Shown: one piece after another, positions 17,189 through 61,760 of the stretch
How positions within the stretch are numbered: the stretch's first letter is position 1
Layout: the number at the start of each line of letters is the position of its first letter
From: Nemertoderma westbladi
Taxonomy: Eukaryota; Animalia; Xenacoelomorpha
Assembly (NCBI GenBank): GCA_032718475.1
Contig: JAUCBJ010007494.1
Span: forward strand, 18,243-82,242
Direction: 5' to 3'
DNA: 64,000 nt
The notes under the pieces: model-generated
Database searches by the model: none
Told to the model about the DNA's origin: nothing
What the model saw: the letters and a program-made list of their open reading frames with translations, nothing else
Made by a program: the position numbers and the translations under genes

Positions 17189-17266
17189 CTGTTTAGAGTA
17201 TCTTTATGTTTTAGAAACTGTGATTTTTATATTTTATAGACTGAAAATCCCATTTTCTGGGAGCGG

Positions 17267-18495: not shown

Positions 18496-18500
18496 CAATT

Positions 18501-19061: not shown

Positions 19062-19124
19062 CTGTTTACAGTATTTTTATATTATAGAAACTGTATAGAA
19101 TTAAATCCCATTGTCTGGGAGCGG

Positions 19125-38656: not shown

Positions 38657-39880
38657 TGTAAAAGCTTTTGTGGGATAACTGATTCGTTTGCCTTGTTGGC
38701 CAGTTCCCCCCCAGTCGCTAAGAATACTCTCAAAGTGATCTATAGTTAAAATAGTGTAAGCTACCAGCTTATTGGCTGATTTGTGGGATGCAGGTATCTG
38801 GGCTCTGTTAATCGTCCAACTAGCCTAAGAGGGTTGCGTCATAGCCTGTTTTTGTATCTTCCAATAGAAATTTGAGTTATCCTGGATTTTAACCAATCCT
38901 GAGCTACTGAACTGAAAATTCCTATCTCACTGCTCATCCTCTGTGTTGAACGGGAGCTTTGGGGAATAAGTGTAGTTGGTATTCTCGTAGTCACGAGTTT
39001 TTTAAAGCCACGAAAGAACGGCTTATAGTGTTTTGTGCTTTTCTGCTTTTTAGTTTAACACTAGCAGGTTTAATTATAAGGACATATATCCTTTAACTGG
39101 CAAAACAAACTGCATATCATATCAAACTGCGGACTGCATACCTAACGCACGGCATACTACTGACTGCTGAAACATTGCAAACTCATAACAATCAGTGTTC
39201 AGTTGTTGTTTTATACTGCTATTTACTGTCGGTTATTCATTATATTTGTGGATGAATTATTATATTTGGAATAACGAGAAACAACCCCGAAACCCAATAT
39301 TCTTGATATACCGAAGGTAAGAGAGAAAGGTTACAGATAAACGATTGTGACTTATGTTAAAGTGGTTTGAAGTGAATTTAATGTTATTTGATAGACCCTA
39401 CATGAGTCAGCCTGTGTTCCTTTTATATGTGACTAAAATCAGTGAAGATCGGCAGATTAGTGTGCAGTATTGTGCAGCATTGTGTATGCGTGAGTCTGTT
39501 AAAGAAGCATTTCCTAAAGAATGCGCCATATATGTTAATTATAACTAAACCATATCGTTGTGAGTAGTTTAAGTCATAACTCTGTTTATATAGATAGAGC
39601 GCCACGTCCTAAAGGAACTGTTAATATTCCCGAAGGTAAATAATATTGTCAGAGATTATATAATACTGTCAGTCGAATAATACATTAGGCTTACATAGCA
39701 ATAAAATTAAACCGTCGAACCCAATCTCCCGGGAATATCCAGCGGGTGAATGGTCGCGCACGGATTGGTTTCGACTAGTGTAGTGAATCAAATATTTGTC
39801 GTAGGCAGAAAAGCGATTTAATATCTAGAAGACATCATAATTTGGTGGGTTAAACTGCCAAAGGTCTGAAAGCGCGAACA
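38657..39880 (+). repeat. 5' LTR of copy C
   Basis: TGT...ACA ends; CCAAT boxes in U3; donor-like AG/GTAAGA at 39317; AATAAA at 39700. Confidence 0.98.
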
Positions 39881-39892
39881 TTAAAGGATATA
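39881..39892 (+). promoter_or_regulatory. Non-canonical primer-binding position (TTAAAGGATATA), complementary to an LTR-internal 12-mer
   Basis: No TGG after the LTR; exact reverse complement of TATATCCTTTAA at 39085-39096; same pair in B (7976-7987 and 7189-7200). Confidence 0.6.
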
Positions 39893-40182
39893 GCTTCTTT
39901 ATTGCAGTAAGCAATAAAGTTGAAAGTACCGGTCAACCGGTAAACCTGAACGGTACATTGTAGGTCTGTAGGCCTAACTGTCATAACCGGTACCGGTACT
40001 GCTGTATAAGTACATTTAGTATTATTCGATTTTGATTGTTGTATACCTGTAGGTCTTAGTACTTAATCAGGGAACGGCCGCCCTGGTTTTTTATTGAGAT
40101 TTTACTTATTTCTGTCAAGTTTTATTTGTTTGTAGGCCAGTATTGAACAGAAGACGTGTAAGCCTGATCAGATTGTGCAGAC

Positions 40183-40745
40183 AATTTGTAGGCTGAGCTG
40201 TTGTCTGATTGCTGTTAGGTCTGAACGGATTGCAGTGTGTGTAGAGCAACTGTCCGGTTAAGTACGGTTAGGAAGTAGGGGCAGCGAATGCGGTAAGGTA
40301 AACCCCCAGCTAAAGAATAAGTCGTACTACTGGGTTAGAACGCATACTACCTAATCATTCCGGAGTCTGCATGTCCTGTAGTTTATTTAGGCTTGAGAGT
40401 AGTCTACCATCGTTTAGTCTGTACTTTGTTTGTGTAAGTCTGTACGGGTAGCGTATAATTTTATTTAGATAATTTGTAGGCTGGATAATTGTCTGGCTGT
40501 TATCGGGTCTGAACGGATTGTAGTGTGTGTAGAGCACCTGTCCGATTGAGTACGGTTAGGAAGTAGGGGCAGCGAACGCTGTAAGGTAAACCCCCAGCTA
40601 AAGAATAAGTCGTACTACTGGGTTAGAACGCATACTGCCTAATCATTTCGGAGTCTGCATATACCGTAGTTTGTTTAGGCTTGATAGTAGTCTGTCGGTA
40701 TTTGGTCTGCATTTTGTTTGAGTAGTTTGTACGCGTAGCGTAATA
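40183..40745 (+). repeat. 288-bp tandem duplication in the 2.2-kb 5' leader (also about 8240-8810 in B)
   Basis: CTAAAGAATAAGTCGTACTACTGGG occurs at 40310 and 40598. Confidence 0.9.
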
Positions 40746-42078
40746 TTTATTATTCAGAGTTTATGCGATTATTCGCAACCTTCACATTCCCCAACTTTGT
40801 TCCTACAGTAATTGTGTTTGTTATACATACCGCTATAGTTAAATTAACCCCGGTACTACACGGGCTGCTCGGCGTAGGTAAAGACTGGTGATTTTGTGCA
40901 TCGGTCACTCCAGCAGATGCCGTGGTTCTTTTAGCTGTTCAAGTATATTTAACTACTGATTATCTGTTATACAAGTACTCGTACCTAATTTAGGGTTTAG
41001 TGTACAGTAGGCCTACTTTCCGAAGTAATTAGTGTAGGCATTATATTTGTGTTGTAAAGTGGTTGATAGGCACCTTCGATTAGCTCTATTAACTTCTAGG
41101 TAGGAACACTCCGTGATACATAACGTAGAACCTATAGCGATACGGCCATAGGTCGTCAGGCGGTGGTATTTTCCTATCTGGACAACGCAGTGTATTTACT
41201 ACTACTTATTATTTTCAAATACTGTAGTACCCTGTCTGTTGTAATAACCAGATTTCTAACCCTTTGTTAGGCTGGTTTGTAGACTTCTTGTAAAATTACC
41301 CTAAAAATTCGTATTTTGTGTTTTTTGTAAATTTTTGCATTTATTTAGAGATTGTAATCTCACCCGAATTGTACGTAATTTGTAGTATTAAGTAACTTAG
41401 GTAAATTAGTATTATTTGTTTTAGTGTCCTGTACGTAACACTTCACTGAAAGCGTACCGCTTTGTGTAGTGATTACCCCAGAAATAATAACATTTGTTTC
41501 AAAGATTGACAAAACCCATTAAAACGGGTATATATATATTATAAATCAAATCTAACGATTTATAAATAGTAGGCCTACCATATAACAATTAGGTCTCAAT
41601 ATCAGTTGGATTACTGCTCAAATAACGGTAATAAAGTAAGTAAAGTAACAAAGTAACCCTAAAGTAACAGAAATTCAATTATTTGAAATAATTGATATAC
41701 CGGTATTTACGATAGGCCTATTATCTTTATTTCTATAAATCTAGGCTGAAATTATACCGGTACTTGTAATTAATTCTATTTCAGAATTATATATCCTACA
41801 AACTGTAAGCTGTATACCGGTATTCCGATAGGCCTATTATATATTTATATATATTTGTGCTAAAATTATACCGGTATTCTGTGATAAACCTAGTCTGTAA
41901 TAATACTTATATAGTTATATATACTATAAGTATACCGGTATTCTAATATATTATATATATATAACGCTACACTGAGTAGCAGTACCGGTAATTAATTACT
42001 AGGCTAGCAGTTAATACTGAGTTACTAGACTTACTCAGACTGTAATACAGCAGTAGACATTCAACGGTATACATAGTC

Positions 42079-45000
42079 ATGTCTGATACTAAGCAGAACC
42101 TGTCAGACAGTATATTAGATGTAACTATCTGCGACTCAGATAGAGACGTACAACAGTCTGGTCGTAAATTCAGTTCACCTCCCACTGTGAGGAAGGTCAT
42201 CCCTCCAGTAGTAATAACAGAACCTAGGCTAGTCCAACATCGTAGGTCTATCATAGGCACCCGAGCTCAGGTCAAGCGGGACCAACAAGCAGCGGAACAG
42301 CAACAACCCGCTAGTCAAGAACTTATTCCTCAGCGGCCCAGCAGCTCCAGTAGTGAGGATACTGTAGAGCTGACACCCGAGCGCGGAGCAGAGATGACGG
42401 ATGCGGTTTATACGGATCCCCTTCTCATCCTTCCTGCAGCCGTACTCACCAGGTTATTGATCGCGGTGGAAGAACACCAGATCGATTGGGCGAGAAGTCA
42501 ACGACCAACTAGAGATAGTTATGCGGGATACACGAGTGAAGAACTGAAGTCTATTGTCGAGTCGCAATGGAACTTCCCCGGACCCGGACTCCCGTTTGAT
42601 TTATCAGAAGCTGCCTGGGAAGACATACACCGGATGGGAGTAGCCAAGGAAACCATCGATCCAGCTGTATGGAAGAGGTCCGCAGCCGGATACGCACAAG
42701 GATTCTTCAGCTCTATGGAGCGAGTAGAAAAACAACTGTTTCAACAACCTCAAGGACCTCAAGAGCAGGGATCGCTGCTTTATCAAGTTAGAGAAAGAGT
42801 TCTGCGGATTAGGCTAATCTTATCCGCCTTTGAGGAGGCTTCTAAAAGAAGGCAAGACACGTCGTTGCAAGTTGCCGTAAAGACTTGGTTTCAACGGGTG
42901 AGTCGCCAGGTTCAAGGAGCAGCTCAGTGGAAAGCTCAGTTGGAGGAGCGCTCAACCCATGGAGAATCAACAGACGCTACTTTTTCCCAAGTGGAAAGTG
43001 AAGCGACGGCAGAGAAACCGCATAAGAGGGATGCCATTGACATCTATCTGTCAGACTATCAGCGTTTCGTAGGTGATGAAGAGTTGCGGAGAAGACTAGA
43101 TGGGCTTAGCCCTAATAGTGAAGGAGCCCAGCGTGTGTTGGATGCAATTGATGTGGATAGGTTAGCGGCGAACCAAGCTAAATTCGATGAACAACTCCGC
43201 ATCGCTAGAGACCAAGAAGAACAAGTAAAGAAAAAACGTATAGAAGATAGAAAGGCAGCGGCAGTGGCAGCAGCAGTGGCAGAGGCAGAAGCGGAAAGAA
43301 AGGCAGCAGCAGCAGTGGCAGAGGCAGAAGCGGAAAAAAAGGCAGCAGTGGCAGTGGCAGAGGCCGAAGCGGAAAGGAAAGCGGCAGCAGCAGTGGCAGC
43401 GGCAGAAGCCGAAAGAAAAACAGCAGAGGCAGTGGCAGAAGCAGAACGGATGGCATATGAAGAGGCAACCCAACTAGAGTTGGAAAATCTTCAAGAGAGG
43501 CAAGACAACTTCAATAAACAGTTAACAGCTAGTAATATGCAGATGATGAGTCGATCTACTCCCAAAAGACAGGGGTATACATCATCTGAGGAAGGCGATA
43601 CCACCGACACTGAAGGCGGAGGAAATCGACCTCGCCTAAGCAGACGTAAAAGAACATTCCACCGTCAGAAATTACCTGATTTGCCTCCAGCTGTTAGAAG
43701 GCAACTAAATAACAACAACTTAGGTAGTACAGAGCCCACAGACCAAATAATTACGATAGAAAGACTCCCTACTATAGTAGATGAGCCTGAAATAATTAGG
43801 CCTGTTCTTGAAATCACCCCTTCGGTGATAGACACACCTGTGCTCCCTGAAGCTACTTATAAATTCCCTCTACATAGCACTAAGCTACCTGTGCCCAGTA
43901 GAACTGCCCAGGAGACAGTTCAGGTCCTGGACCCCGAGCGAAATATTCCAACTTTGTCGCCCGTTGTCCCTCGTCTGCCCGCTACGACGTTGGCGGATCC
44001 CGTTTCGGCGGTTGATTGGGTAGACGAGAGACGGCGGGGGATGGATATTCTCCTCGGAGAGATGAAGGAGAATCGGAGACTCTCCTCCCAACAGGTCCGA
44101 GAGTTGGAAGGGACGGTCCAACATTTAAAGGGAACAGTGAGGGAAAGTAGGTTAGAGCTGCAAGAAGTGCAGCAAAGTATCGCGCTTGAACGCGATAAAT
44201 TAGTAAACACCCAAAAGGGTATACCACCACCCTCTGTAACAATGTGTCAACCTGTTAGGTCTGAAGTATCGCATGCGCAAGGTGTGGAGCCTACACGCAT
44301 TTATACTGCTAGCGAAGTAGAAACTCCTATAGTGAACCCTATTAAGGGTAATTATAGACCTGTTGATAATGATATTCCATATAGAACTGACCATAATCCT
44401 AGAAATTTATATACCGATAACTCGATATTAAATAGCACGATGGCCCAAGAAAGTTTTACGCGTCAAATGGCTAGAACCGAAGCCCGGCAAGCGGTAAAGG
44501 TTGGAGAGATCGTCAAGTTCAATGGAGATGAGATGAAATGGTTACCTTTTAATGAATATTACAAAGATAGCATACAGAACTCTGTACTATCTAATGGAGA
44601 AAAACTTAGATACCTCATAGAGTGCTTGGAAGGATCTCCCAAGTTAATGGCGTTAAAGTTTATTGGACATCCAGACGGATTAAGACAGGTTTGGGATACA
44701 ATAAACATCAGGTATGGTAATAGGAATAATATCGCTGGGTACTTGTATGCAAAGTTAGTAGCGCCCCGAAAGTTTATTAGTAGCGAAATTATCGAGTTTT
44801 CCGATGAGATCCAGGAGATCTGCAGACAATTAGATTGGCTAGGTAAGTCTCATGAGTATCAGAACACTATGGTTATTAGAGCAGTGGCTTCTACTTTACC
44901 TAAAGGTGGAGTAGGTACACGCTGGGATAAGAAAGTGTTATATATGATGGAACAACAACGGCGAGACCCTACCATGGCTGATCTCATGTCATTCCTAGAT

Positions 45001-48000
45001 GGAGAAGTGAAATTACAGCTCCTGAAACTGTCTAGGGAGAAAACACCGGAAAACAAGGTAAGTGAAAAACCCGTCTCTAGGAGAAAAATAACACCAGTAT
45101 GTTATACCGATGACGGCGAAAGCCAGACTTCTCAAGGAGAAGATAGCGGGAAGGACACGGATAGATCTTATTACGTGAATAAAATGCCTAAAGATCAGGT
45201 AAGTAAATTCAAGTCTCGAACAAATGACAGGAGAGAACAAGTAAGAAAAACTCCTCCCATGTCTCCCAAGAGAATTCAGGTGAGAAAGCCCGAAGAAAAG
45301 GCAAGTGTACACAATGTGACTCAGAATAAGGTAAGTAACATTAAACCAAAATGTGCGCTGTGTGACGGGACCCACTATTTGAATAGGTGTGATGAATTTC
45401 TAAAGAAATCATTAACGGAGAGACGCGAAGTTATGTGGGATAAGCGGTTATGTTATAATTGCCTCAGACAAGGACACCAACGGCGTACCTGTTTCTCGGA
45501 CATAAGATGTGCAAAGTGTGGTGCGAAACATCATATCTTGTTGCACGCTGAATTCGATCGAAATAGTCCGAATCAGGTAAGTGATTCCGAGCTACATGTC
45601 CAATTCAGTGATGTGAACGACACTGATCAATCTGAGATGGAAGGATTCTACACAGACGAGTTCTCCGACGAAAACGAATCCTGTTACATGATAAATACCG
45701 CAGTGTATCGAGCGCTCACCTATGAAAAGGATACAGACAACGACTTCAACCTAACTACTTCTGAGCGACAACAATCTTGGAAAGAGCCATCTTCCAATGT
45801 AGGGATCCGAGAGTTTCCTGTGGTGCAAGTGAGGGTTCATGGACCTAAGAGGAGTTATGTAGTGAACGCCCTCCTTGACTCCGGTAGTACAGGAACATTC
45901 ATCGACAAAGAGCTAGCCGAAGATATATTTGCTGGACAACTCAAGTTCCAAACTAAGCTCAACATGTCTGGCATAATGCAAGTTTGGAAATCTACAATCA
46001 CAGCGGATTATTATGTAGGAGCATTGTCCACCCCCCAGGACGAACTAGGAGAACATAGCATAAGGTCAGTGAAAATGGTGGCTATAAAGAACTTCGCTAC
46101 TACTCAAGCAGACCTTTATAATTGGGACGAGGATGAGAGCATCCAACATCTTAACATACCTCGATTCCAGACTGATTATCCTGGAGTGCAAATACTCATC
46201 GGCCAAAACGCGCATGAGGCGCTGGAGACATTAGAGAAACGGCCTGCTCAACCGCAGCCCCTACAGACCTATGCGGTAAGAACTAGAGTAGGTTGGTACT
46301 TTACTGGCCCTTCCCGTAGAACACTCAGAGAAAGACTACCGCCAGAGAGCGTATGCCAGGTGAGTGAATGGGAAGATGATACCAGTGAGGGAGACAACTC
46401 AACTGAGGGAATTCCATATTCCTCAGATAATGACGACGTTCACCAGCTTTTTGATGAGGAGAATACCATCGATCTCCTTAAGGAAAACGACGCTTGGCAA
46501 AACCAAGTGAACTTATGTCAACTTCTCTATCCATCTGAACGAGAAGCTTATAACGACGAGTTACATGACGTCATTGAGCGTCATAATGCCAAGATTCGGG
46601 ATGAACATGCTGTACGATTCTTTACGCAAGAGGCAGTAGAGCCCAATTCCTATGATAAGGCCTTATCAGTGGAAGAGGAAAGGGCCAAGCAGATCCAAGA
46701 GACTACCACACGTTTCATCAAAGATCAAGGTAGGTATGAAGTCGGTTTACCTTTTCGTAAGAAAGAGCCGAAGTTCATCAATAACAGACCTTTGGCGGAA
46801 AAAAGAATCGCGCAACTCCATCGACGCCTTACGGCTAATTCTTCAGCGAAAACAATGTATCAAACACAGCTGGAAAAGTTTATTAATAAGGGATACGCGG
46901 AGAGGGTACCGGAAGAAACACCTGTGACTGAAAGAACGTATTATTTAACTCACCATTACGTTCCTAAACCCGGTAAACCCAATGAAGTGAGAGTAGTGTT
47001 TGATGGCTCCGCTCTTTACATGGGTCAATCCCTTAACTCTGAATTGTTACCCGGACCCAACTTACTTCAATCTTTGTTGGGAATTCTTTTAAGATTGAGA
47101 CAATATGCGATTGCTTTCGCCTCAGATATAGAAGGCATGTTCTTGCAAGTCAAAGTGTTGGATAGGGATCGAGATAGCCTACGATTTCTATGGTGGCCCG
47201 AAGGAGACCTCAACCAGAAACCGGTGGAGTATTGGATGACCATCCAGGCCTTTGGGATAATCTCAAGCCCTTCCAATGCCTGTTCTGTAGTGCGTACTAC
47301 TGCAGAGGACAACCGAGAGGCATTCTCTAAGGAAGTGATCGACAACATCAAGAAAGACATATACATGGACGACAATCTGAAGTCCCTTCCATCAGTTGAA
47401 GAAGCCATTGAGGTCGCTAAGGGAACGGTAGAGTGCTTAAAAAGAGGTGGTTTTCGATTAACAAAATTCACCAGCAACTCCCGTGAGTTTCTGGAGTCGA
47501 TTCCTGCGGAAGATCGCGGAGCGAAAGATCTAGATTTGATCAAAGATGATCTGCCAGAAACCAAGACACTCGGCTTGAAATGGGACACAGAGAGAGATAT
47601 CCTGTTTTTCCAACTAAAACAGCGGGACAATCCTGTTCGAACCAAACGGATTTGCTTAAGTATACTGAGCACCTATTTCGATCCATTGGGATTTATTAGC
47701 CCAGTTATATTGATTGCTCGAAGTTTGGTACAACAAATGTGGCTTGAAAACCACTCATGGGATGATCCACTTAAGGGGGAGTTACTGAAGCAGTGGATGA
47801 AATGGGAAGATTCTCTACCAGCGATCGAGGAGTTTATAATTTCCCGTTCATATTTTGGTCATGTTTTCCCTACGTATTCCTATCAACTCCATGTGTTTGG
47901 AGACGCCAGCGATATGGGAATCGGTATAGTAGCCTACCTAAGAGTGGAAACTCCGGATGGAATCAAACTCGCCTTGGTCACTTCTAAAGCATTAATCAAC

Positions 48001-50247
48001 AACAAGTTGAAAGTTCCTCGAGCGGAGTTAAAAGCGGCTCTATACGCTACAGCCATCGGCCGGAATGTAACCGAACAGATTGACTATACATTAGAGAAAA
48101 CTGTATATTGGACCGACGCTTTACTCGTGTTAGAGTATATAACCAATGAAGTCTGTCAGTTCAGCGTCTTCGTTACCAACAGAGTAGCCATCATACTTAG
48201 TCGCACGACGATGGACCAATGGAGACATTGCCCCGGAACGATTAATCCAGCGGACATCGCGTCCCGAGGAGCGACTCCAAAGGAATTGGTAAATACTCCC
48301 GAATGGTTAGGCGGACCCGACTTTCTCTACCGAGAAGAAGAAGAATGGCCACCCCATCTCACAACAGCAGAGATCAGACAGGCCAAGGGAGCGGAGAAAG
48401 TTAAGCCCAAAACTCGAGCGAGTAAATCAAAGTTGTTCAAACCTGCGGTTGATCTATCTGTATTATTTACTTCCGGAGATGATGCTTTGGATCAGAAACC
48501 CACCGCCACGACGAAAGAAGTCTTGGAAATCCGTGACAAGGATTGGAAATCTGGAATACCAGATATCTCGCAAGGACTCTCACCTCTCTTGCAGAGAGCA
48601 ATACGTCACTACAGTTCCTGGAATCGGCTCTGTAAAGCCGTCACCTATTTGAAACGATGTTTTCATCATCGTTACTCCGGAACAAAGACCAATAGTGATG
48701 ATACTCCATCTACATCTGCACGAGTCCATGTTGTTAAAGATCTTCCCCAATATAAGGTATCCCACAGGTTTCTAAAGGAGAAGATCAGCTACCAGGAGCA
48801 TGATGAAACCAACAAACAGATGCTGAGACTCCTACAATGCTATGAGGATTCCGATAAGTATTTCCTGTTGTTAAGAAATCCACAGATGCGCTTAAGGGAT
48901 CGCTTCTCTAGTACCATGATAGATGGGTTAATACGTGTTGGAGGTCGGCTCACCAACGCCCCGTTATCCTTTGACACTAAGTTTCCCATACTCATTAGAA
49001 ATCTTGATATACAAATCAAGATGATTGTAGATGTTCATAGCAAACTGTACCATGCCGGTAGAGAGCGGGTTCTGAGCGAAATCCGAACTCGCTACTATTT
49101 TTATAAACCCCGTAGGGCTCTGAACCAAGTTCTTAGGAACTGCATACCCTGTAGGAAAGCATTCAGTAGGCCTTTAACGCAGCGAGAGGCAGAATTACCT
49201 AGGGAAAGAGTAAGCTTCTATGAACCACCCTTTACTAATACCGGTGTGGATTTATTTGGCCCTATTGAAGTATATCGTGCCCGGACTATAGTCAAGAGAT
49301 GGTGTGTCATCTTCGTTTGTATGACTTGTAGAGCTATCCATCTCGATATGGTAAACGATCTATCCACCAACAGCTTCGTGTTGAGTTTGCGACGACAGAT
49401 AGCTCGCTTCGGAACCAGTAACACGATGAGATCGGATAAGGGAACGAACTTCATTGGCGCCAATAACGAAATTCAAGCTTACGTAAAGGACTGGAATAAA
49501 AGACAGGTGGACGATCAGCTAAGAATAACAGCGTCTAGCTGGACCTTCAACGCCGCCGACGCCCCTTGGTGGGGAGGAAGTTGGGAGAGATTGATTAGGA
49601 GCGTGAAGACTGCGTTCCACTTTATTGTGCCTTGTCGCGCTTATCTCACCGACGAACTATTGCGGACGTTAATGGAGGAAATCGCCGCCTATCTCAACGA
49701 AAGACCGCTTATGCCAGTCTCTTCAAATCCTGATTCCCTGGAAGCGCTAACACCCGCGCACTTTCTACTGAAGAAACCCGTAGCCATGCTCCCGCAATCG
49801 GAGATCACAGACGGAGACGAGTACTGCCGTCGAACCTGGCAACTTATGCAGTTGCTATCCCGTCGTTTCGCTGACCATTTTGAGAAACATTACCTGCCCA
49901 CTCTACAACTTCGAACTAAGTGGTTTGCGCAGCAAGAAAACGTCAGCGCTGGAGACATGGTGCTTATTGTGGACCCCGATCTCCCACGTAAGCGATGGCA
50001 AACAGGACGTATCATCGAGACTTATATCTCGAGCGATGGTTTGGTGCGATCAGTAGAGCTCGTCGTCATGCGGCGGAACTTTAAGAAACCAGGGATAGTC
50101 TTTGAGACTCAACAGCTTAATCGCCCAGTGGGACGTTTATGTTTACTGGAAAGAGACAGAGAGCTCTCCGGAAACTATGGAAGGCAAGAAACTCTTCCCA
50201 CGACCACTTCCCTGATCCAACCGACATCTAGGGACTCCCCAACTTAA
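42079..50247 (+). CDS. BEL/Pao Gag-Pol polyprotein (2722 aa): Gag, 3 Zn knuckles, aspartic protease, RT, RNase H, integrase
   Basis: ALLDSGST; YLTHHYVPKPGKPNEVRVVFDGS, DIEGMFLQV, YMDD; LHVFGDAS, PRAELKAA, YWTDA, NPADIASRG; HSKLYH..CIPC, GVDLFGP, SDKGTNF, PWWGGSWERL; BEL domain order in a single ORF. Confidence 0.98.
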   Translation: MSDTKQNLSDSILDVTICDSDRDVQQSGRKFSSPPTVRKVIPPVVITEPRLVQHRRSIIGTRAQVKRDQQAAEQQQPASQELIPQRPSSSSSEDTVELTPERGAEMTDAVYTDPLLILPAAVLTRLLIAVEEHQIDWARSQRPTRDSYAGYTSEELKSIVESQWNFPGPGLPFDLSEAAWEDIHRMGVAKETIDPAVWKRSAAGYAQGFFSSMERVEKQLFQQPQGPQEQGSLLYQVRERVLRIRLILSAFEEASKRRQDTSLQVAVKTWFQRVSRQVQGAAQWKAQLEERSTHGESTDATFSQVESEATAEKPHKRDAIDIYLSDYQRFVGDEELRRRLDGLSPNSEGAQRVLDAIDVDRLAANQAKFDEQLRIARDQEEQVKKKRIEDRKAAAVAAAVAEAEAERKAAAAVAEAEAEKKAAVAVAEAEAERKAAAAVAAAEAERKTAEAVAEAERMAYEEATQLELENLQERQDNFNKQLTASNMQMMSRSTPKRQGYTSSEEGDTTDTEGGGNRPRLSRRKRTFHRQKLPDLPPAVRRQLNNNNLGSTEPTDQIITIERLPTIVDEPEIIRPVLEITPSVIDTPVLPEATYKFPLHSTKLPVPSRTAQETVQVLDPERNIPTLSPVVPRLPATTLADPVSAVDWVDERRRGMDILLGEMKENRRLSSQQVRELEGTVQHLKGTVRESRLELQEVQQSIALERDKLVNTQKGIPPPSVTMCQPVRSEVSHAQGVEPTRIYTASEVETPIVNPIKGNYRPVDNDIPYRTDHNPRNLYTDNSILNSTMAQESFTRQMARTEARQAVKVGEIVKFNGDEMKWLPFNEYYKDSIQNSVLSNGEKLRYLIECLEGSPKLMALKFIGHPDGLRQVWDTINIRYGNRNNIAGYLYAKLVAPRKFISSEIIEFSDEIQEICRQLDWLGKSHEYQNTMVIRAVASTLPKGGVGTRWDKKVLYMMEQQRRDPTMADLMSFLDGEVKLQLLKLSREKTPENKVSEKPVSRRKITPVCYTDDGESQTSQGEDSGKDTDRSYYVNKMPKDQVSKFKSRTNDRREQVRKTPPMSPKRIQVRKPEEKASVHNVTQNKVSNIKPKCALCDGTHYLNRCDEFLKKSLTERREVMWDKRLCYNCLRQGHQRRTCFSDIRCAKCGAKHHILLHAEFDRNSPNQVSDSELHVQFSDVNDTDQSEMEGFYTDEFSDENESCYMINTAVYRALTYEKDTDNDFNLTTSERQQSWKEPSSNVGIREFPVVQVRVHGPKRSYVVNALLDSGSTGTFIDKELAEDIFAGQLKFQTKLNMSGIMQVWKSTITADYYVGALSTPQDELGEHSIRSVKMVAIKNFATTQADLYNWDEDESIQHLNIPRFQTDYPGVQILIGQNAHEALETLEKRPAQPQPLQTYAVRTRVGWYFTGPSRRTLRERLPPESVCQVSEWEDDTSEGDNSTEGIPYSSDNDDVHQLFDEENTIDLLKENDAWQNQVNLCQLLYPSEREAYNDELHDVIERHNAKIRDEHAVRFFTQEAVEPNSYDKALSVEEERAKQIQETTTRFIKDQGRYEVGLPFRKKEPKFINNRPLAEKRIAQLHRRLTANSSAKTMYQTQLEKFINKGYAERVPEETPVTERTYYLTHHYVPKPGKPNEVRVVFDGSALYMGQSLNSELLPGPNLLQSLLGILLRLRQYAIAFASDIEGMFLQVKVLDRDRDSLRFLWWPEGDLNQKPVEYWMTIQAFGIISSPSNACSVVRTTAEDNREAFSKEVIDNIKKDIYMDDNLKSLPSVEEAIEVAKGTVECLKRGGFRLTKFTSNSREFLESIPAEDRGAKDLDLIKDDLPETKTLGLKWDTERDILFFQLKQRDNPVRTKRICLSILSTYFDPLGFISPVILIARSLVQQMWLENHSWDDPLKGELLKQWMKWEDSLPAIEEFIISRSYFGHVFPTYSYQLHVFGDASDMGIGIVAYLRVETPDGIKLALVTSKALINNKLKVPRAELKAALYATAIGRNVTEQIDYTLEKTVYWTDALLVLEYITNEVCQFSVFVTNRVAIILSRTTMDQWRHCPGTINPADIASRGATPKELVNTPEWLGGPDFLYREEEEWPPHLTTAEIRQAKGAEKVKPKTRASKSKLFKPAVDLSVLFTSGDDALDQKPTATTKEVLEIRDKDWKSGIPDISQGLSPLLQRAIRHYSSWNRLCKAVTYLKRCFHHRYSGTKTNSDDTPSTSARVHVVKDLPQYKVSHRFLKEKISYQEHDETNKQMLRLLQCYEDSDKYFLLLRNPQMRLRDRFSSTMIDGLIRVGGRLTNAPLSFDTKFPILIRNLDIQIKMIVDVHSKLYHAGRERVLSEIRTRYYFYKPRRALNQVLRNCIPCRKAFSRPLTQREAELPRERVSFYEPPFTNTGVDLFGPIEVYRARTIVKRWCVIFVCMTCRAIHLDMVNDLSTNSFVLSLRRQIARFGTSNTMRSDKGTNFIGANNEIQAYVKDWNKRQVDDQLRITASSWTFNAADAPWWGGSWERLIRSVKTAFHFIVPCRAYLTDELLRTLMEEIAAYLNERPLMPVSSNPDSLEALTPAHFLLKKPVAMLPQSEITDGDEYCRRTWQLMQLLSRRFADHFEKHYLPTLQLRTKWFAQQENVSAGDMVLIVDPDLPRKRWQTGRIIETYISSDGLVRSVELVVMRRNFKKPGIVFETQQLNRPVGRLCLLERDRELSGNYGRQETLPTTTSLIQPTSRDSPT

Positions 50248-51897
50248 TATCGTTCGGAGTGGGCGTGTGACTCTATTATTTTATATTCTTTTATTATTTT
50301 ATATTTATGTATGTATTACTATGTAATTTTATTATAATCGTTTTATTTAATTTAGTAGAATATTATTTTGGCGATTATTTTGTAGAATAGCGCAATATAT
50401 TCGTGTTTATTACGTACGTACATACTTACTTATATTATATTTAGTGCGACGGCGAAGAAATAATTATTTTTTCTCTTTCCTTACTGTCCGTATTATATTA
50501 TAAATACGTAACTACAGTAAGATGAAATGTCTGTACTTATTAAAGTACAATAAAGCCACTACTATATTTAAGTATTATTGGTAGGCAGAGTATTAGGAAT
50601 GCAAAGTTCAGATCCTCGTGTCTCGGCTAAACCAAGCTCTGGGTAGACCTTGGAAACGACTTGCCTCTTCACACTGACATTGCTTCGTGCGATATTGCTC
50701 TCATACCGTATATTAAATAATACATATAGTAGCGTGATGTCCCTTTAACAGTAGCGTATAATGCAAAATAAATCTGATAAACCCTTTGACCATCTGTAAT
50801 TCTAGTCGATTAAGATATCGCGGCACCCACCGATATACTTGAAAGACAAATTCTAGAATCAGTGGTTAACGTCCCCAGACAAGTTCTGGAATAAATCGGT
50901 GCCCATCTCAAATATTAATTATTTAATATTTGCAAATCAAATAAGTCAAAATCTGTAAAATTCAGATCCTTCAACAATTCTAGTCAATTAAGATATCGTA
51001 GCATTTACCGATATTCTTAAAGAGACAATTTTCTTAGAATTAAGGATCTTGTGTCCCTAGACATGTTCTAGAATCAAAATATGTCTATCTAATTATCAAA
51101 TAATAAAATTTCAGGGAATAAATTTAAATTCATGTTTTTTAATGAATTTAATAAATTGCCATTTTACGCAATTTATAACATTCCCAAAATTCTATTAATT
51201 AATAGATCAAGGGAGCGGAGATTTATATTATTATGCGTATGCGTGTACGAAAGTCTCCCCAACATAGTCAATAGCCGATAAAATTCATAAAGTCATATAT
51301 AAACAGGACATTGACTATTAAAGAATTCCTATTAAATAACATCCCAGATCTGTATGCATTGGAATTACTCTAATTCTACCGCTAGCTTTGCATAATGTCA
51401 CCATAGCAACAACCACGCTAGAATTAGGATTGAGTTAAACTAACAATAGAAAGCTTGTCCCATTGAATAACATAGGGAATAAATAGCGCACTACTAGTAT
51501 CCAAGGATACATAATAATACAGTGACATTCTGGAAGGCATTGACTAACGGACAAATGGCCCGAATGTGTGTAGTTGTGACCAGTTGTGTGGTATTTGTGA
51601 GTTTATAGGTGAATGTTACTGCTAAAGTGTGTTTACCGTAGCTAGTCACAATCGTAAAATAACCTAACTCCCCAAGGAATACCTGAAGTACATCTAAGCC
51701 TTTGGGACGGACAGTGGAGTGACTTGTGTCGGTTATCGTTGTAGTTGTACGGCTACGTCGTTGGCGAAAGTACAGCTACAGCGGTACATCGGCGCTGAGA
51801 ATCTCTTACTGTCCGGGGGCAAGGGGAACTAGGCGTCGACGCCCGCTCGCCTAACGATATAAACTCATTATCATATTGGTGAACTCGTATAGCAGAT

Positions 51898-54800
51898 ATG
51901 ACTGAATTAATAGAAGATGATCTTGGTATCAGGGAGAGATATACTCTACCTCTACAAGCGTTTGTCGATAGCTTAATACGCGGCGACGCTGATCCAACTC
52001 CTACGGAGGACGATGGTCGTTATATCGAACCGCCAATGTCCCAGGAGCAACTTACGCGTGAATTGGATTATAGAAAGTTCACTGCTCGCTACACTCATCG
52101 TAATGGTACGTATATGGACTTCTTGACCACTGGTCATCCTATTGATTTACACGACACCGACGATGTAGACACCGAAAGGGAAATGGTTTTATTTAAATAT
52201 CATGCCCAGCGGAGTCGAAACGATAAATCGAGAATAGAACACGAGAACTCTATTCGAAACAAACTCGAAAGAGAAGACGTTGAAGAACCTGATAAACGTA
52301 ACGGTTTCAACGATTATCTAGAATTCTTACGAGAGACCTATCTCAATGTTGCTAGTCAACAAAACCTCGAAACTCGATATCCCCAAGGTATACATCCAGA
52401 TCCTATAATGGAACTCAAACGGCTCTATTTTACGATGATGTATCTTACCGCCGATCGACCGCTACCTGTCGTTCCAGATAGCTTCGAACAGATGGAGGAA
52501 TATTGTAAAACTGGAGAGCGATCACCCGCGTTTCCCCTTCAAGACGTGCGTCTTTGGTATTACTGTGACGAATGCCCTAGACCTAACCAGCAAATCGAAA
52601 GGCATAAACACCCTCTGAGACGTTGCGCTAAGCACAGTTTTACGCGATATACTTATGGGAGTTTCGAGCTTAACCTTTTCGACGTATCGCCTACGGTCGC
52701 GCGCCTTAAGCGATCATTGAATAAACCCATGATCAGAGTTCCGGAATACTCGGTCAGACCTCCCCATTCACAAGTGATACCTCAAACTCTAGATCCTAAT
52801 AGTATTACGGATCCTCCCGAACTGTACTCACTGTTCAAAGATCTAGTGTTACCTGAACAGTTGATTGGTGGCACTCCGGTAGTGGGTTCGCTGGATATTC
52901 GCCAACCTTACCTTGCTGGACTAGGACGCGGTCATTTAATATCACCGTTTAATCCCTACAACCGTCCTGGCCTTCCTCCGATCCAACCTGTTACAGAAGT
53001 CGAAGAGAGCGTGATACGAAATGCATTGGACGCTATTCGGCAGAAAATCGGGAAAGGAACTTACGATTGCTTGGAGAAACGTAAATTGCAGCAACAAGTC
53101 CAAGCGGTGAAAGAACTAGCTTTACCCCAGTTTGATAGAGAAATACAAAATCTAGAGGAGGACATCGAACGTGGACGAACCTACTCTTTACAGGAATTCC
53201 TGGACGAGCGCTTGCAACAACAAGCGGAGGAAAATCAGATCGAGGAAAGACATATAGAACTGACTGAGAGGGAAGAAGCAGCTTTAGCTCAACCAGAGGC
53301 TCAAATTCTCGTGACGGATCTCTATTCCAAAACGATCCTCCACCCCTCAATGGTTCCTCAGTTTAAAGACAAGCTCTTTGCTACGGTACAACCTCAACCG
53401 GTTAATACTGATCTCAGATCTCACGAGCTCGTTGCTGACGCTCCCATGCTACAACGCCCACCCGTAGAGGCTGCCCGTGTCGATGGCATACTTGTTGAGC
53501 CTCCGGACAATAGAGCAGATCTTGTCCGTCGCATGGTGCACGATGTTAACATACGCGCTCACCCGTTAATACTTGGAACTAAACTCGCCAAGTTAGACGA
53601 ACACAATAAGTTCATACGTTTTGAATGTTTCCGGCGCTTTCTGACTCCGTTCCGTAAAGTCGATAGTCAGTTCAAAGATCGCGCGCTGACCAAGCTCAGT
53701 CTTAGAGACTCAGCTGCGGAGAAACTGAGTAGCGCTGGATTTGCTGTGTTTCAAGACGTTTGTATACAGAACTCACATTCATCTGTTATACAAAGACCCC
53801 GAATACCTACAGGTTATTCTGTCGTGGAAATACAGACAGTGGGTCCACTTACGGAAACCGACGCACCAACTTCGTCTATGCAGCTGGAGGATGAACCAGT
53901 ATGCTTGGAATCCGAAGCGATTCAACCTACGGCTTCTCGGAGCAGTGACAATGATTATGTCATAGAGTGGTATCAAGGTCCACAGCGTCTCACAGCGTAC
54001 GATTATCGACACGCCAACTACGTTTCCCGAAAACGTTGTCGATTATGCGCATCGAGAGACCACTTCACTCCTCTAGACTCGAGCGTACCTTGTTCCTATT
54101 TCCTCGAACAACCGATGATGGAAATATATTGTGCTTATTGCCGGCTTAATAACTCTCATATATTTGCCGTCTGCCAACAATTTATGACTCAATGTCACTA
54201 CTGCCAACTTAAAGGACACGAAAGTTACAATTGTCCCTTTAATCGCGATTTAGAGAGCGTAGACGAGATGATCACCCTGCGATACATCCGAGCTTGGGAA
54301 GCGAACGCAGATTTACATTGCGAATCCAGACATCGCTATTACCCTGGACGAGCTTACGAGGGAGTTTACGCGTTCCATCCTTATCTATTCGCGTCGATTG
54401 AACAGAAAACACGCGTACCAAGTTACGAGTTAATGAAGCGTGTTGGTGAGTGTATTTCCACCAAGTTTGTCAGGAAATACCTGAGAAACGTTAATCCTAA
54501 TGATATAACCACATATCACCTGATCAATTTTATCCGTCAGGACCCTGAGTATGGCGACATTTTCGTGAACTCGCATCCTGAACTCCAGGAAGTATCTCGG
54601 CGCCCATATGAATATCGAACCCGAGAACGCGAGCTGGAGAGAACCATTAAACCGAGAAAGTTCCTCACCACTCACGGTCCACCCACCGCTAGTGTCCAGA
54701 CGACCCGTCAAGGACCCGTGGGAGCTGCTGTCCTGAGACGCGCTCTAAAGGCCGTTAGACCTCGCTCCACTGAGGTTGATATTAATCAACCAGGTACTTC

Positions 54801-54966
54801 GACCGGCGGGTATACCGATCGTAATCCTACCCCTTCTGATGCAATCGTATTGCACCCTTCGCCTAGGAGCTACAGCCCTCCTCATAAAGTGGCTCGCCCC
54901 AAAGAGAAAAGGACTCTTGCTAGCCTCAAGAAACTGCGTAAACGCCGTCCGCGCAAGAAAGACTAA
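51898..54966 (+). CDS. ORF2 (1022 aa), unknown soluble protein with three CCHC knuckles and a C-terminal NLS-like tail
   Basis: Long open frame inside the LTRs; CRLCASRDH..C, CAYCRLNNSHIFAVC, CHYCQLKGHESYNC; KKLRKRRPRKKD; no signal peptide or transmembrane segment visible. Confidence 0.9.
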   Translation: MTELIEDDLGIRERYTLPLQAFVDSLIRGDADPTPTEDDGRYIEPPMSQEQLTRELDYRKFTARYTHRNGTYMDFLTTGHPIDLHDTDDVDTEREMVLFKYHAQRSRNDKSRIEHENSIRNKLEREDVEEPDKRNGFNDYLEFLRETYLNVASQQNLETRYPQGIHPDPIMELKRLYFTMMYLTADRPLPVVPDSFEQMEEYCKTGERSPAFPLQDVRLWYYCDECPRPNQQIERHKHPLRRCAKHSFTRYTYGSFELNLFDVSPTVARLKRSLNKPMIRVPEYSVRPPHSQVIPQTLDPNSITDPPELYSLFKDLVLPEQLIGGTPVVGSLDIRQPYLAGLGRGHLISPFNPYNRPGLPPIQPVTEVEESVIRNALDAIRQKIGKGTYDCLEKRKLQQQVQAVKELALPQFDREIQNLEEDIERGRTYSLQEFLDERLQQQAEENQIEERHIELTEREEAALAQPEAQILVTDLYSKTILHPSMVPQFKDKLFATVQPQPVNTDLRSHELVADAPMLQRPPVEAARVDGILVEPPDNRADLVRRMVHDVNIRAHPLILGTKLAKLDEHNKFIRFECFRRFLTPFRKVDSQFKDRALTKLSLRDSAAEKLSSAGFAVFQDVCIQNSHSSVIQRPRIPTGYSVVEIQTVGPLTETDAPTSSMQLEDEPVCLESEAIQPTASRSSDNDYVIEWYQGPQRLTAYDYRHANYVSRKRCRLCASRDHFTPLDSSVPCSYFLEQPMMEIYCAYCRLNNSHIFAVCQQFMTQCHYCQLKGHESYNCPFNRDLESVDEMITLRYIRAWEANADLHCESRHRYYPGRAYEGVYAFHPYLFASIEQKTRVPSYELMKRVGECISTKFVRKYLRNVNPNDITTYHLINFIRQDPEYGDIFVNSHPELQEVSRRPYEYRTRERELERTIKPRKFLTTHGPPTASVQTTRQGPVGAAVLRRALKAVRPRSTEVDINQPGTSTGGYTDRNPTPSDAIVLHPSPRSYSPPHKVARPKEKRTLASLKKLRKRRPRKKD

Positions 54967-55036
54967 CTGTTTAGAGTATTTTTATATTTTAGAAACTGTG
55001 ATTTTATATATTTTATAGACTTAAATCCCATTTTCT

Positions 55037-55044
55037 GGGAGCGG
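55037..55044 (+). promoter_or_regulatory. Short polypurine tract GGGAGCGG
   Basis: Immediately precedes the 3' LTR in all three copies, within a TCCCA-n5-TGGGA hairpin. Confidence 0.75.
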
Positions 55045-56268
55045 TGTAAAAGCTTTTGTGGGATAACTGATTCGTTTGCCTTGTTGGCCAGTTCCCCCCC
55101 AGTCGCTAAGAATACTCTCAAAGTGATCTATAGTTAAAATAGTGTAAGCTACCAGCTTATTGGCTGATTTGTGGGATGCAGGTATCTGGGCTCTGTTAAT
55201 CGTCCAACTAGCCTAAGAGGGTTGCGTCATAGCCTGTTTTTGTATCTTCCAATAGAAATTTGAGTTATCCTGGATTTTAACCAATCCTGAGCTACTGAAC
55301 TGAAAATTCCTATCTCACTGCTCATCCTCTGTGTTGAACGGGAGCTTTGGGGAATAAGTGTAGTTGGTATTCTCGTAGTCACGAGTTTTTTAAAGCCACG
55401 AAAGAACGGCTTATAGTGTTTTGTGCTTTTCTGCTTTTTAGTTTAACACTAGCAGGTTTAATTATAAGGACATATATCCTTTAACTGGCAAAACAAACTG
55501 CATATCATATCAAACTGCGGACTGCATACCTAACGCACGGCATACTACTGACTGCTGAAACATTGCAAACTCATAACAATCAGTGTTCAGTTGTTGTTTT
55601 ATACTGCTATTTACTGTCGGTTATTCATTATATTTGTGGATGAATTATTATATTTGGAATAACGAGAAACAACCCCGAAACCCAATATTCTTGATATACC
55701 GAAGGTAAGAGAGAAAGGTTACAGATAAACGATTGTGACTTATGTTAAAGTGGTTTGAAGTGAATTTAATGTTATTTGATAGACCCTACATGAGTCAGCC
55801 TGTGTTCCTTTTATATGTGACTAAAATCAGTGAAGATCGGCAGATTAGTGTGCAGTATTGTGCAGCATTGTGTATGCGTGAGTCTGTTAAAGAAGCATTT
55901 CCTAAAGAATGCGCCATATATGTTAATTATAACTAAACCATATCGTTGTGAGTAGTTTAAGTCATAACTCTGTTTATATAGATAGAGCGCCACGTCCTAA
56001 AGGAACTGTTAATATTCCCGAAGGTAAATAATATTGTCAGAGATTATATAATACTGTCAGTCGAATAATACATTAGGCTTACATAGCAATAAAATTAAAC
56101 CGTCGAACCCAATCTCCCGGGAATATCCAGCGGGTGAATGGTCGCGCACGGATTGGTTTCGACTAGTGTAGTGAATCAAATATTTGTCGTAGGCAGAAAA
56201 GCGATTTAATATCTAGAAGACATCATAATTTGGTGGGTTAAACTGCCAAAGGTCTGAAAGCGCGAACA
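55045..56268 (+). repeat. 3' LTR of copy C
   Basis: Matches 38657-39880; followed by TSD TTCTG. Confidence 0.98.
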
Positions 56269-56303
56269 TTCTGTCACAAATTGGTGTAACAATAGCAGTT
56301 AGA

Positions 56304-58857: not shown

Positions 58858-60750
58858 TCATCTTGTTGATTTCAATTTGTTTGAAGATCTGAATATCTTG
58901 TCCTTCTCTCCGGGTGATGAACCCCTGTCATTCTCTCCAGCTGATGAACCCTTGTCCTTTTCTCCAGCTGATGAACCCTTGTCCTTCTCTCCAGGTGATG
59001 AACCCTTGTCCTTCTCTCCGGGTGATGAACCCTTGTCCTTCTCTCCAGCTGATGAACCCTTGTCCTTCTCTCCAGCTGATGAACCCCTGTCCTTCTCTCC
59101 AGCTGATGAACCCTTGTCCCTCTCTCCAGCTGATGAACCCCTGTCCTTCTCTCCAGCTGATGAACCCTTGTCCTTTTCTCCAGCTGATGAACCCCTGTCC
59201 TTCTCTCCAGCTGATGAACCCTTGTCCCTCTCTCCAGCTGATGAACCCCTGTCCTTCTCTCCAGCTGATGAACCCTTGTCCTTCTCTCCAGCTGATGAAC
59301 CCCTGTCCTTCTCTCCAGCTGATGAACCCTTGTCCTTCTCTCCGGGTGATGAACCCCTGTCCTTCTCTTCAGCTGATGAAACCTTGTCCTTCTCTTCAGC
59401 TGATGAACCCTTGTCCTTCTCTTCAGCTGATAAAGCCTTGTCATTCTTTTCAGCTGATGAACCCTTGTCCTTCTCTCCAGCTGATGAACCCTTGTCCTTC
59501 TCTCCAGGTGATGAACCCTTGTCCTTCTCTCCAGCTGATGAACCCTTGTCCTTCTCTCCAGCTGATGAACCATTGTCCTTCTCTCCTGCTGATGAACCCT
59601 TGTCCTTCTCTCCGGGTGATGAACCCTTGTCCTTCTCTCCAGCTGATGAAACATTGTCCTTATCCCCAGTTGTTGAAGCCTTGTCCTTCCCCCCCTTACC
59701 CTCGTCCATCTCACTACTCCTGCCGCTTTCTAAATCGTCACTATTTATACTGTCCACCTCTTGCGTCTCCTCATCTATCCCTCTCACCCTACTCACATCC
59801 AGATTAACCACTTTGGTTGCCCTCAACCCCGCACGCTTGGGGGCGACTCCTCCCGTCTCTTTACAGACAACGGCTTCCCTCAGCAACCCGGCCAGATCCA
59901 TCTCGAACTCTGTGTCGTCGCGTCTCAGACACATATCCTGCTCCAACTTCAGCTTACCATCGGCTATCGACTTGATCCCTTCCTCTATGGTACCTTTACT
60001 AACTAATTTAATGACTTCGACTTCCTTATTTTGACCCACTCGATGGCATCGGTCCTCAGCCTGTTTATCGTTGTAAGGGTTGAAGTCTAAGTCGTGGAGG
60101 ATTACAGTATCTGCTGCGGTAAGGTTGATGCCAAGACCTCCAGCGCGCGTCGAGATCAGGAATATAAAGAGTTTATCATCTGTATTAAAGTCGTCGATCA
60201 TAGACTGTCTGTCAAGTACCGGAGTGGAGCCATCCAGTCTGAGGTACCGGTAACCGCGGTGCTGTAAGTACGGCTCAACTATGTCTAGGATGATGACGAA
60301 CTGACTGAATATCAACACGCGATGACCGCCAGCCAGCAGCTCGGGGAGTTTATCGTCCAAATAGGAAAACTTACCCGACTGGATAATTTGTTCGGTTTTA
60401 AGCCGCTGGCGGCGTAACGAGTTGTATTTGCTGCACACAGTGTGGATCTCGAAGTCGGACATCACGGATAAGTCCTCGATCCAGTGCTCCAGGACTCGGT
60501 CCTTAACGTCCTCTTTAATGATGACCTTGGCGATAGAGCTGATCTTTTTATCGGTGTAGAGAGAGCGATGCAGCAGCGGGTGATTGGCCGCCTTCCGTAG
60601 TTGCATCAAGGCTCCCGCTATGGACGTTGTACCGGCGCCGCCATCCTCACTACGTATCGATTTACCGAGACTCCGTTTCATCGTGGAATAGAGCAGCTGT
60701 TGGCGCTCAGTCATCGATACAAACTCGACTGTTTCCACTTTCGCCGGCAA
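58858..60750 (-). CDS. SMARCAD1: Terminal coding exon of a SMARCAD1/Fun30/Etl1-family SNF2 remodeler (helicase C domain plus repeat tail)
   Basis: Acceptor TTTATTTTAG before LPAK; LMQLRKAANHPLLHR, MSDFEIH, SGKF, RVLIFSQF, STRAGGLGINLTAADTVILHDLDFNPYNDKQAEDRCHRVGQ. Upstream exons not identified in the window. Confidence 0.9.
   Translation of the reverse strand: MPAKVETVEFVSMTERQQLLYSTMKRSLGKSIRSEDGGAGTTSIAGALMQLRKAANHPLLHRSLYTDKKISSIAKVIIKEDVKDRVLEHWIEDLSVMSDFEIHTVCSKYNSLRRQRLKTEQIIQSGKFSYLDDKLPELLAGGHRVLIFSQFVIILDIVEPYLQHRGYRYLRLDGSTPVLDRQSMIDDFNTDDKLFIFLISTRAGGLGINLTAADTVILHDLDFNPYNDKQAEDRCHRVGQNKEVEVIKLVSKGTIEEGIKSIADGKLKLEQDMCLRRDDTEFEMDLAGLLREAVVCKETGGVAPKRAGLRATKVVNLDVSRVRGIDEETQEVDSINSDDLESGRSSEMDEGKGGKDKASTTGDKDNVSSAGEKDKGSSPGEKDKGSSAGEKDNGSSAGEKDKGSSAGEKDKGSSPGEKDKGSSAGEKDKGSSAEKNDKALSAEEKDKGSSAEEKDKVSSAEEKDRGSSPGEKDKGSSAGEKDRGSSAGEKDKGSSAGEKDRGSSAGERDKGSSAGEKDRGSSAGEKDKGSSAGEKDRGSSAGERDKGSSAGEKDRGSSAGEKDKGSSAGEKDKGSSPGEKDKGSSPGEKDKGSSAGEKDKGSSAGENDRGSSPGEKDKIFRSSNKLKSTR
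58895..59665 (-). repeat. 27-bp coding minisatellite (GSSAGEKDK, about 28 copies)
   Basis: CTGATGAACCCTTGTCCTTCTCTCCAG units, in frame with the SMARCAD1 exon. Confidence 0.95.
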
Positions 60751-61530: not shown

Positions 61531-61760
61531 TAAGCTTTCACTACATTTGGTAAGCCATGGTTTGGTTAAGCATACAAAGCAAGAATGTTATGTGCTCTAA
61601 AATGCCACAAAGAGTAAGTATGCGAATACACCATGTCCCAGAATATAGTGTCGTAATTCAGTATTCGCATAACTTACTCTTTGTGGCATTTTAGAGCACA
61701 TAACATTCTTGCTTTGTATGCTTAACCAAGCCATGGCTTACCAAATGTAGTGAAAGCTTA
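61531..61760. repeat. Long palindrome (about 99-bp arms, about 31-nt spacer)
   Basis: TAAGCTTTCACTACATTTGG...TATGCGAATAC paired with GTATTCGCATA...CCAAATGTAGTGAAAGCTTA. Confidence 0.95.

Follow-up and report, generated by a model that had tools for sequence, protein, structure and literature searches.

A large zinc-knuckle open reading frame at the env position of a BEL/Pao-type retrotransposon of Nemertoderma westbladi

In a 64,000-nucleotide stretch of the Nemertoderma westbladi genome (GenBank assembly GCA_032718475.1, contig JAUCBJ010007494.1, forward-strand positions 18,243 to 82,242; hereafter the window, whose own numbering is used throughout), a long terminal repeat (LTR) retrotransposon that by its sequence features is of BEL/Pao type occupies positions 38657-56268, 17,612 bp in all, and carries downstream of pol, ahead of the 3' LTR, a second open reading frame (ORF2) that evolves under purifying selection, similar to gag-pol. 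Its product is an orphan that does not look like Env. Our tentative reading, from motifs and their arrangement, is that ORF2 may be a trans-acting nuclear regulator of the element's unspliced genomic RNA, of the kind represented by Rev of HIV and CERV of the nematode element Cer1.

ORF2 had been singled out in an earlier note, made from the letters of the window alone, as an intact frame encoding three CCHC motifs, another Cys/His cluster, a Q/E coiled-coil stretch and a very basic C-terminus, with no signal peptide or transmembrane anchor; the note proposed a nuclear nucleic-acid-binding accessory protein, possibly one that binds a structured LTR RNA. The features of the frame are as follows.

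51898..54966, + strand: ORF2, orphan non-Env accessory protein, 1022 amino acids (aa), zero internal stops
54037..54234, + strand: three CCHC zinc knuckles of ORF2, aa 714-779
52564..52635, + strand: N-terminal Cys/His cluster of ORF2, a possible fourth zinc site, aa 223-246
53008..53274, + strand: acidic part of ORF2 with helical, coiled-coil-like character, aa 371-459, from a low-confidence model
54919..54963, + strand: basic C-terminal tail of ORF2, resembling a nuclear localisation signal, 9 of the last 15 residues K or R

Most of that description was borne out. When the interval between pol and the LTR was shuffled 200 times, the longest stop-free frame reached 231 codons, against 1022 observed. 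The knuckles lie exactly where they had been placed, with the spacings CX2CX4HX9C (aa 714-732), CX2CX5HX4C (aa 745-759) and CX2CX4HX4C (aa 766-779); they fall below Pfam detection, and in 20,000 residue shuffles of ORF2 one such motif appeared in 0.4% and two in none. The further cluster (C223, C226, HKH, C243, H246) is present and is retained in the family copy at 5923-6750, and the basic C-terminus is there as claimed. For the coiled coil, what stands is an acidic stretch (D+E fraction 0.24 across residues 366-470) of which aa ~371-459 form the most confident helices (predicted local distance difference test, pLDDT, 50-62) of a poor single-sequence model; it can be called only coiled-coil-like, no coiled-coil predictor having been applied. 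No transmembrane or signal-like hydrophobic segment was found by hydropathy (top 19-residue Kyte-Doolittle mean 1.07; no dedicated signal-peptide predictor was used), and because a membrane segment is absent we take ORF2 not to be Env. Its motifs predict nuclear location and nucleic-acid binding.

Selection was assessed pairwise against the other family copies in the window, by simple counting with gap and stop codons dropped. The ratio of non-synonymous to synonymous divergence (dN/dS) was 0.09-0.24 in seven of seven ORF2 segments (aa 1-453 and 970-1022), next to 0.11-0.29 in six of six gag-pol segments in the same comparison, with synonymous divergence between copies reaching dS ~1.3. Because the window copies lack the knuckle region, contigs of four runs were aligned to 53980-54640, each site being read singly: this gave 139 variable sites, and among the best-supported 40 we counted 26 synonymous and 14 non-synonymous changes (29 at third positions), where 21-27% synonymous would be expected (P < 1e-6). 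The 12 zinc-ligand codons showed, among these best-supported 40 of 139 sites, one synonymous change and zero non-synonymous ones. Neutral evolution, which the earlier note had named as telling against its own proposal, is contradicted by these figures. Summed contig depth was lower over mid-ORF2; depth cannot rank parts of the element and was not used as evidence, nor was run X4, which may be of RNA.

Homologues of ORF2 were sought in protein, viral and metagenome collections. A phmmer search of 1.84 billion representative proteins returned none at E ≤ 0.001 and no Caenorhabditis match, and Pfam found zero families, including no capsid or DUF1759 domain. Word-indexed searches, which took in near-length and shorter proteins, gave no homologue among 7995 scored candidates of near length for the whole of ORF2, 112 for residues 690-920, or 50 among shorter proteins. 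PDB sequences reached a best E of 0.39, viral contigs held no match for ORF2 or pol, and Rfam gave a single chance match (E 0.39). One metagenome locus was rejected as a chance match (28% identity over 59 residues, one 8-residue word, knuckles absent). Nearest neighbours of ORF2 in the ESM Atlas were of zf-CCHC/HEXBP-type, DUF8363 and zf-MYND, all with scores below 0.9, which shuffled proteins also reach, so that they are leads only. AlphaFold2 run without an alignment gave unusable models (mean pLDDT 35 and 50), and Foldseek on the second (mean pLDDT 50) returned nothing at E ≤ 0.001, which is uninformative. By exact look-up none of the three window proteins was present (ORF2, gag-pol and a neighbouring helicase ORF), and because gag-pol and the helicase ORF are equally absent, coverage of the host is probably poor, and sampling accounts in part for the orphan status of ORF2. 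A match to a known Env, fusogen or host gene, the other finding that the earlier note had set against itself, was thus not obtained from Pfam, PDB, the 1.84 billion proteins or hydropathy. Together with the purifying selection, the absence of an Env match supports that note's central claim of a functional non-Env accessory protein.

In the mechanism that we favour, ORF2 would be encoded by a spliced mRNA using a donor in the LTR (39314) or in gag (44841), the latter giving a Gag-ORF2 fusion resembling CERV. The basic tail would carry the protein into the nucleus, the acidic helices would mediate oligomerisation, and the zinc knuckles would bind the element's RNA at the structured spacer between pol and ORF2. 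Full-length RNA so bound would evade splicing and be exported, so that it could be packaged and translated into Gag-Pol in the cytoplasm, as with HIV Rev and Cer1 CERV. Because the spacer sits in the intron of such an mRNA, it would mark only unspliced RNA. The features concerned are these.

44841..46365, + strand: six consensus donors AG/GTRAGT inside gag-pol, at 44841, 45056, 45197, 45329, 45575 and 46358
39314..39321, + strand: donor-like AAG/GTAAG within the LTR, conserved in three variants of it
51890..51897, + strand: tandem acceptor-like TAG/CAG, two bases ahead of the ORF2 ATG, the same in three of three copies
54446..54540, + strand: 95-nt GT...AG intron-like segment in ORF2, missing in a single contig from DNA run X1, of low depth (weak)
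50248..51897, + strand: pol-ORF2 spacer, 1.65 kb, non-coding, constrained and structured, candidate cis-acting response element
50790-50900 and 50968-51082, + strand: duplicated hairpin in the spacer, from folding
~51057-51330, + strand: hairpin cluster in the spacer, from folding
~51700-51820, + strand: long stem in the spacer, from folding

Consensus donors are far in excess within gag-pol: synonymous-codon shuffles contained a mean of 0.46, and 0 of 2000 reached six. The same motif is missing from the minus strand of the window and occurs once in 28,791 bases outside the family, and the deleted copy at 6747-18495 has five of the six donors unchanged. A genome with so many strong donors would need a route for exporting unspliced RNA. 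The contig of run X1 that lacks the 95-nt segment is a thin hint of reverse-transcribed spliced RNA.

The spacer differs from two family copies by p-distances of 0.06 and 0.11, whereas in those alignments the synonymous sites of the ORFs on either side differ by 0.33-0.51. In a folding scan it was the most structured region of the scanned element (mean z -1.88 over 8 windows), with three chosen stretches at z -4.2, -5.7 and -3.3, whereas the LTR scarcely departed from expectation (mean z -0.21 over 6 windows). The structured LTR RNA suggested earlier therefore finds no support, and the spacer is the likelier RNA target of ORF2; of the earlier interpretation, the functional non-Env accessory protein survives and the LTR as its target is unsupported.

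Deleted relatives bear on which parts act in cis. The window holds three further family members, damaged or deleted, at ~2716-6746, 6747-18495 and 18505-20312. Both copies that span the ORF2 knuckle region delete ~53259-54804, and with it all three knuckles, and both that span pol have lost reverse transcriptase (RT) and integrase and retained the whole spacer. From the deleted copies RT, integrase, most of RNase H and ORF2's knuckle half have gone, and leader, spacer and LTRs remain, as would be typical of trans-acting proteins and cis-acting RNA. Since two of the deletion joints recur in contigs of other runs, the derivatives are multi-copy families.

Several points weigh against a Rev-type regulator. 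Expression, splicing, localisation and binding of ORF2 are all predictions from sequence features, and no sequence or structural tie of ORF2 to Rev or CERV emerged from Pfam or the 1.84 billion proteins, the models being too poor to add to this. The donor motif was picked post hoc and the shuffle ignores codon-pair bias; of the six donors only 44841 is in a phase compatible with the acceptor, the other five being out of frame with ORF2; and strong donors might instead serve U1-mediated protection from early polyadenylation. No GT..AG ends are discernible at 12 deletion or alignment breaks of the window's derivative copies, and nine of these junctions lend no support to an origin of the deleted copies by retroposition of spliced RNA. 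For the spacer, the folded stretches were selected after the scan and covariation is thin (compensatory pairs 2 of 28 and 2 of 58); it could alternatively be a packaging signal or an internal promoter, and its likeness between copies could be due to recombination between subfamilies. On the side of selection, the variant table represents the best-supported 40 of 139 sites, and together the two analyses cover ORF2 outside residues 455-694 and 915-969. Lastly, a nucleocapsid role would suit CCHC knuckles equally.

That role is the first of the alternatives, and we regard it as unlikely yet the likeliest of them: ORF2 would be a second nucleocapsid-like or RNA-chaperone protein, perhaps from a captured piece of gag, that packages the very long RNA or anneals the self-primer in the particle. 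The spacing of its three knuckles resembles that of the BEL Gag box (a long and then a short linker), and a BLASTP alignment of ORF2 with the element's own Gag box can be made, but it is weak and not significant (23% identity, E 2.7), ORF2 has no capsid or DUF1759 domain in Pfam, and Gag already possesses a complete triple box. Cer19-ORF2 of Caenorhabditis carries the label 'Nucleocapsid?' in the available part of PMC7084138. The zf-CCHC/HEXBP-type neighbours in the Atlas point the same way, albeit at scores that shuffled proteins attain, and the element carries a self-priming signature (below) that would give a chaperone work to do; the basic tail suggests nuclear import instead.

A nuclear anti-silencing factor or transactivator, which would bind the element's DNA or nascent RNA against host silencing (VANC, Tat and the foamy virus Tas being the names for comparison), ranks next, and we think it improbable on balance. 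It would accommodate the basic tail, the up to four zinc sites and the acidic helical stretch, as well as the trans action implied by the deletion pattern and an LTR whose U3 part varies between subfamilies while the remainder is kept. Yet ORF2 does not show the fast evolution of an arms race, its dN/dS being as low as that of gag-pol; the donor cluster is left unexplained; and CCHC knuckles mostly bind single-stranded nucleic acid.

There is little to recommend the view that ORF2 was captured from the host or a foreign source and serves some purpose other than the replication cycle, such as host benefit or manipulation. LTR elements do take up unrelated third ORFs, for example the nucleases and esterases of rotifer elements (PMC5408684, in the text available), and with the host genome outside the homologue searches a host paralogue is possible; against this, no homologue came from the word-indexed searches or the 1.84 billion proteins and no domain from Pfam, and dS ~1.3 between copies implies long residence in the family. 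Still less probable, and largely refuted, is the reading of ORF2 as a functionless frame or as an Env or fusogen that has gone unrecognised, for although it sits at the env position and the third genes so far known in Belpaoviridae resemble env (PMC8742986), its hydropathy maximum is 1.07, its Cys lie in CCHC motifs and it is under purifying selection.

The element that carries ORF2 has the following further features.

38657..39880, + strand: 5' LTR of 1224 bp, from TGT to ACA, with the same sequence as the 3' LTR, target-site duplication (TSD) TTCTG at 38652-38656
55045..56268, + strand: 3' LTR, TSD TTCTG downstream at 56269-56273
42079..50247, + strand: gag-pol, a single ORF of 2722 aa, from Pfam domains and motifs
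39881..42078, + strand: leader, 2.2 kb, constrained (p-distance 0.053, against 0.24 at gag synonymous sites of the same copy)
39881..39892, + strand: primer-binding position, with no TGG start, unlike a site for a tRNA 3' end
39085..39096, + strand: candidate self-primer, a 12-nt LTR segment, exact complement of 39881-39892

In a contig of run X3 the two flanks meet with the element missing (38651 joined to 56269), an empty site that marks the insertion as recent and polymorphic among samples. In gag-pol, Pfam finds DUF1759, protease, Peptidase_A17, Integrase_H2C2 and DUF5641; RT and the integrase core are called by motif, Pfam giving no RVT or rve match. The order is protease, RT, RNase H, integrase (LLDSG at aa 1265, YMDD at 1762, GDAS at 1941, HHCC at 2320, integrase core at 2389-2502), and Gag has the BEL-type triple Cys-His box (aa 1092-1156, ending HX3-4H), a motif whose definition is found in the available portion of PMC554778. 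On these grounds (LTR ends and TSD, Pfam domains, Gag box and gene order) the element is assigned to the BEL/Pao type (Belpaoviridae). Two typical traits given by the International Committee on Taxonomy of Viruses (ICTV), an 18-nt tRNA-Arg/Gly primer site and a genome of 4.2-10 kb, are absent and are not family-defining; the same size range and an env-like third gene are reported for Belpaoviridae in the ICTV profile (PMC8742986) and for BEL elements in what is available of PMC3118150.

Some peculiarities of these parts may be recorded. The leader contains tandem duplications (40179-40758, ~290 bp, 85%; 41696-41963, ~150 bp, 74%) that are retained in the deleted copy. The N-terminal part of Gag is unusually long, with ~810 aa ahead of DUF1759 and an Ala/Glu-rich repeat (window 42079-44500), and ~290 of its codons are absent from a derivative copy. 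The first ~390 bases of the LTR (U3-like; 38657-39046 compared with 17267-17669 and 19125-19634) are unrelated between subfamilies except for the terminal 12 nt, the remainder being 79-90% identical, which we read as promoter swapping. The copy at 6747-18495 is non-autonomous; bounded by a pair of LTRs of its own, it has an open frame of 1387 codons (10087-14250) in which the Gag core and protease have been kept through three deletions, without RT and integrase. The three members in 2716-20312 are nested or abutting: in the copy at 2716-6746 an LTR starts within ORF2, and near the same point ORF2 is taken up again by the fragment past 18495, which suggests insertion of the family into itself.

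As to priming, 3e-4 matches of the 12-nt complementarity are expected by base composition, and a diverged pair of LTRs has preserved the 12-mer (7189, 17709). Such pairing is the criterion for self-priming in the available text of PMC6317226, by which the element would count as a self-primer; we regard this as a candidate Tf1-like signature in place of a tRNA-type primer site. One complication for the self-priming model is a TATA-like motif immediately upstream of the 12-mer. No tRNA genes were found in the window. It is possible, if doubtful, that the family amounts to a 'complex' belpaovirus, with an independently evolved circuit of the kind formed by Rev and the Rev response element: an orphan triple-knuckle protein from spliced RNA, a spacer response element, kept gag donors, tRNA-independent priming, and trans-parasitism by derivatives that have Gag and protease only.

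Around the element, the helicase ORF (58858-60714, minus strand, 618 aa, ~2.6 kb from the 3' LTR) has a Helicase_C domain followed by a long 10-residue tandem repeat, and its motifs read as SNF2/SMARCAD1-like. A large G-rich 67-bp tandem array runs from 20322 to ~28900, with a shorter block (2304-2871) beside the first family copy. Near-perfect inverted repeats at 61531-61760 (89-nt arms) and 33800-33932 (59-nt arms) are possibly miniature inverted-repeat transposable elements.

BEL/Pao elements in which a third gene is known (Tas, roo, Cer7 and the mosquito gB-type; PMC8742986, PMC13524379 and PMC554778, in the parts available) share with this one the Gag box, the protease-RT-RNase H-integrase order, the Pfam domains and the 3' position of that gene. 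They differ in that their third genes are env-like, those named in the available text of PMC13524379 being fusogens, and in having genomes of 4.2-10 kb and a tRNA primer, as against 17.6 kb, a soluble third gene and a self-priming signature here. By the ICTV profile, how Belpaoviridae replicate is poorly understood, and the third genes it gives are all env-like (PMC8742986); PMC3601003 and PMC8220671, as far as their text is available, add nothing on a 3' knuckle ORF in BEL elements, and a search of open-access text, by listings, turned up no account of a BEL/Pao element that has a non-Env zinc-knuckle ORF in the 3' position. Rotifer and plant LTR elements, on the other hand, often have third ORFs that are not Env (PMC5408684 and PMC6317226, from the available sections) and that are, like ORF2, lineage-specific and downstream of pol, many without assignable function; those elements are Ty3/gypsy and copia, and the ORFs that were identified there (nucleases, esterases, plant mobile domains) are unlike ORF2. 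The kind is already known, a non-Env accessory ORF in an LTR element, while the ORF2 protein and its 17.6-kb BEL setting are undescribed in the searched literature.

Older papers on Cer elements reportedly mention extra ORFs, and Cer19 we take, from its DUF1759 label, to be of BEL/Pao type. Its ORF2 (C38D9.2, F15D4.5) is a separate, expressed zf-CCHC ORF between the LTRs, of unknown function, in an element whose gag-pol carries DUF1759 (PMC7084138, in the accessible text). By the wording of Fig. S3A there, it apparently lies upstream of gag-pol and may itself be the nucleocapsid, in contrast to our ORF2, which is downstream of pol in an element whose Gag has its own triple box; the two show no sequence match in the 1.84-billion-protein search. 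CERV, from the Cer1 element of C. elegans, comes closer in function. It is a non-Env ORF at the env position of a Ty3/gypsy element, spliced to gag exons, nuclear and Cys-dependent, and it is required for export of the genomic RNA, its role in splicing and export being proven (PMC10309623, in the portion available). Because CERV and the zinc-knuckle ORF of Cer19 precede it, ORF2 is less novel than the earlier note implied. CERV has 517 aa, a C4-type loop and a G-protein-like domain (same portion of PMC10309623), against 1022 aa and three CCHC knuckles in ORF2, and the 1.84-billion-protein search, which involved no direct pairwise comparison, detected no similarity between them. CERV is nonetheless the best functional model for ORF2, in a gypsy element where ours is BEL/Pao. 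Export of unspliced RNA has been settled for few LTR retrotransposons, CERV being, in the literature consulted, the one element-encoded solution, and even if ORF2 should turn out to counter silencing or to be a second nucleocapsid instead, it would still be a new protein family in the env slot. With an orphan candidate regulator, a possible response element and natural deletion derivatives in which cis and trans parts are sorted, an intact, recent, multi-copy BEL family would open this export to test in a third retroelement lineage.

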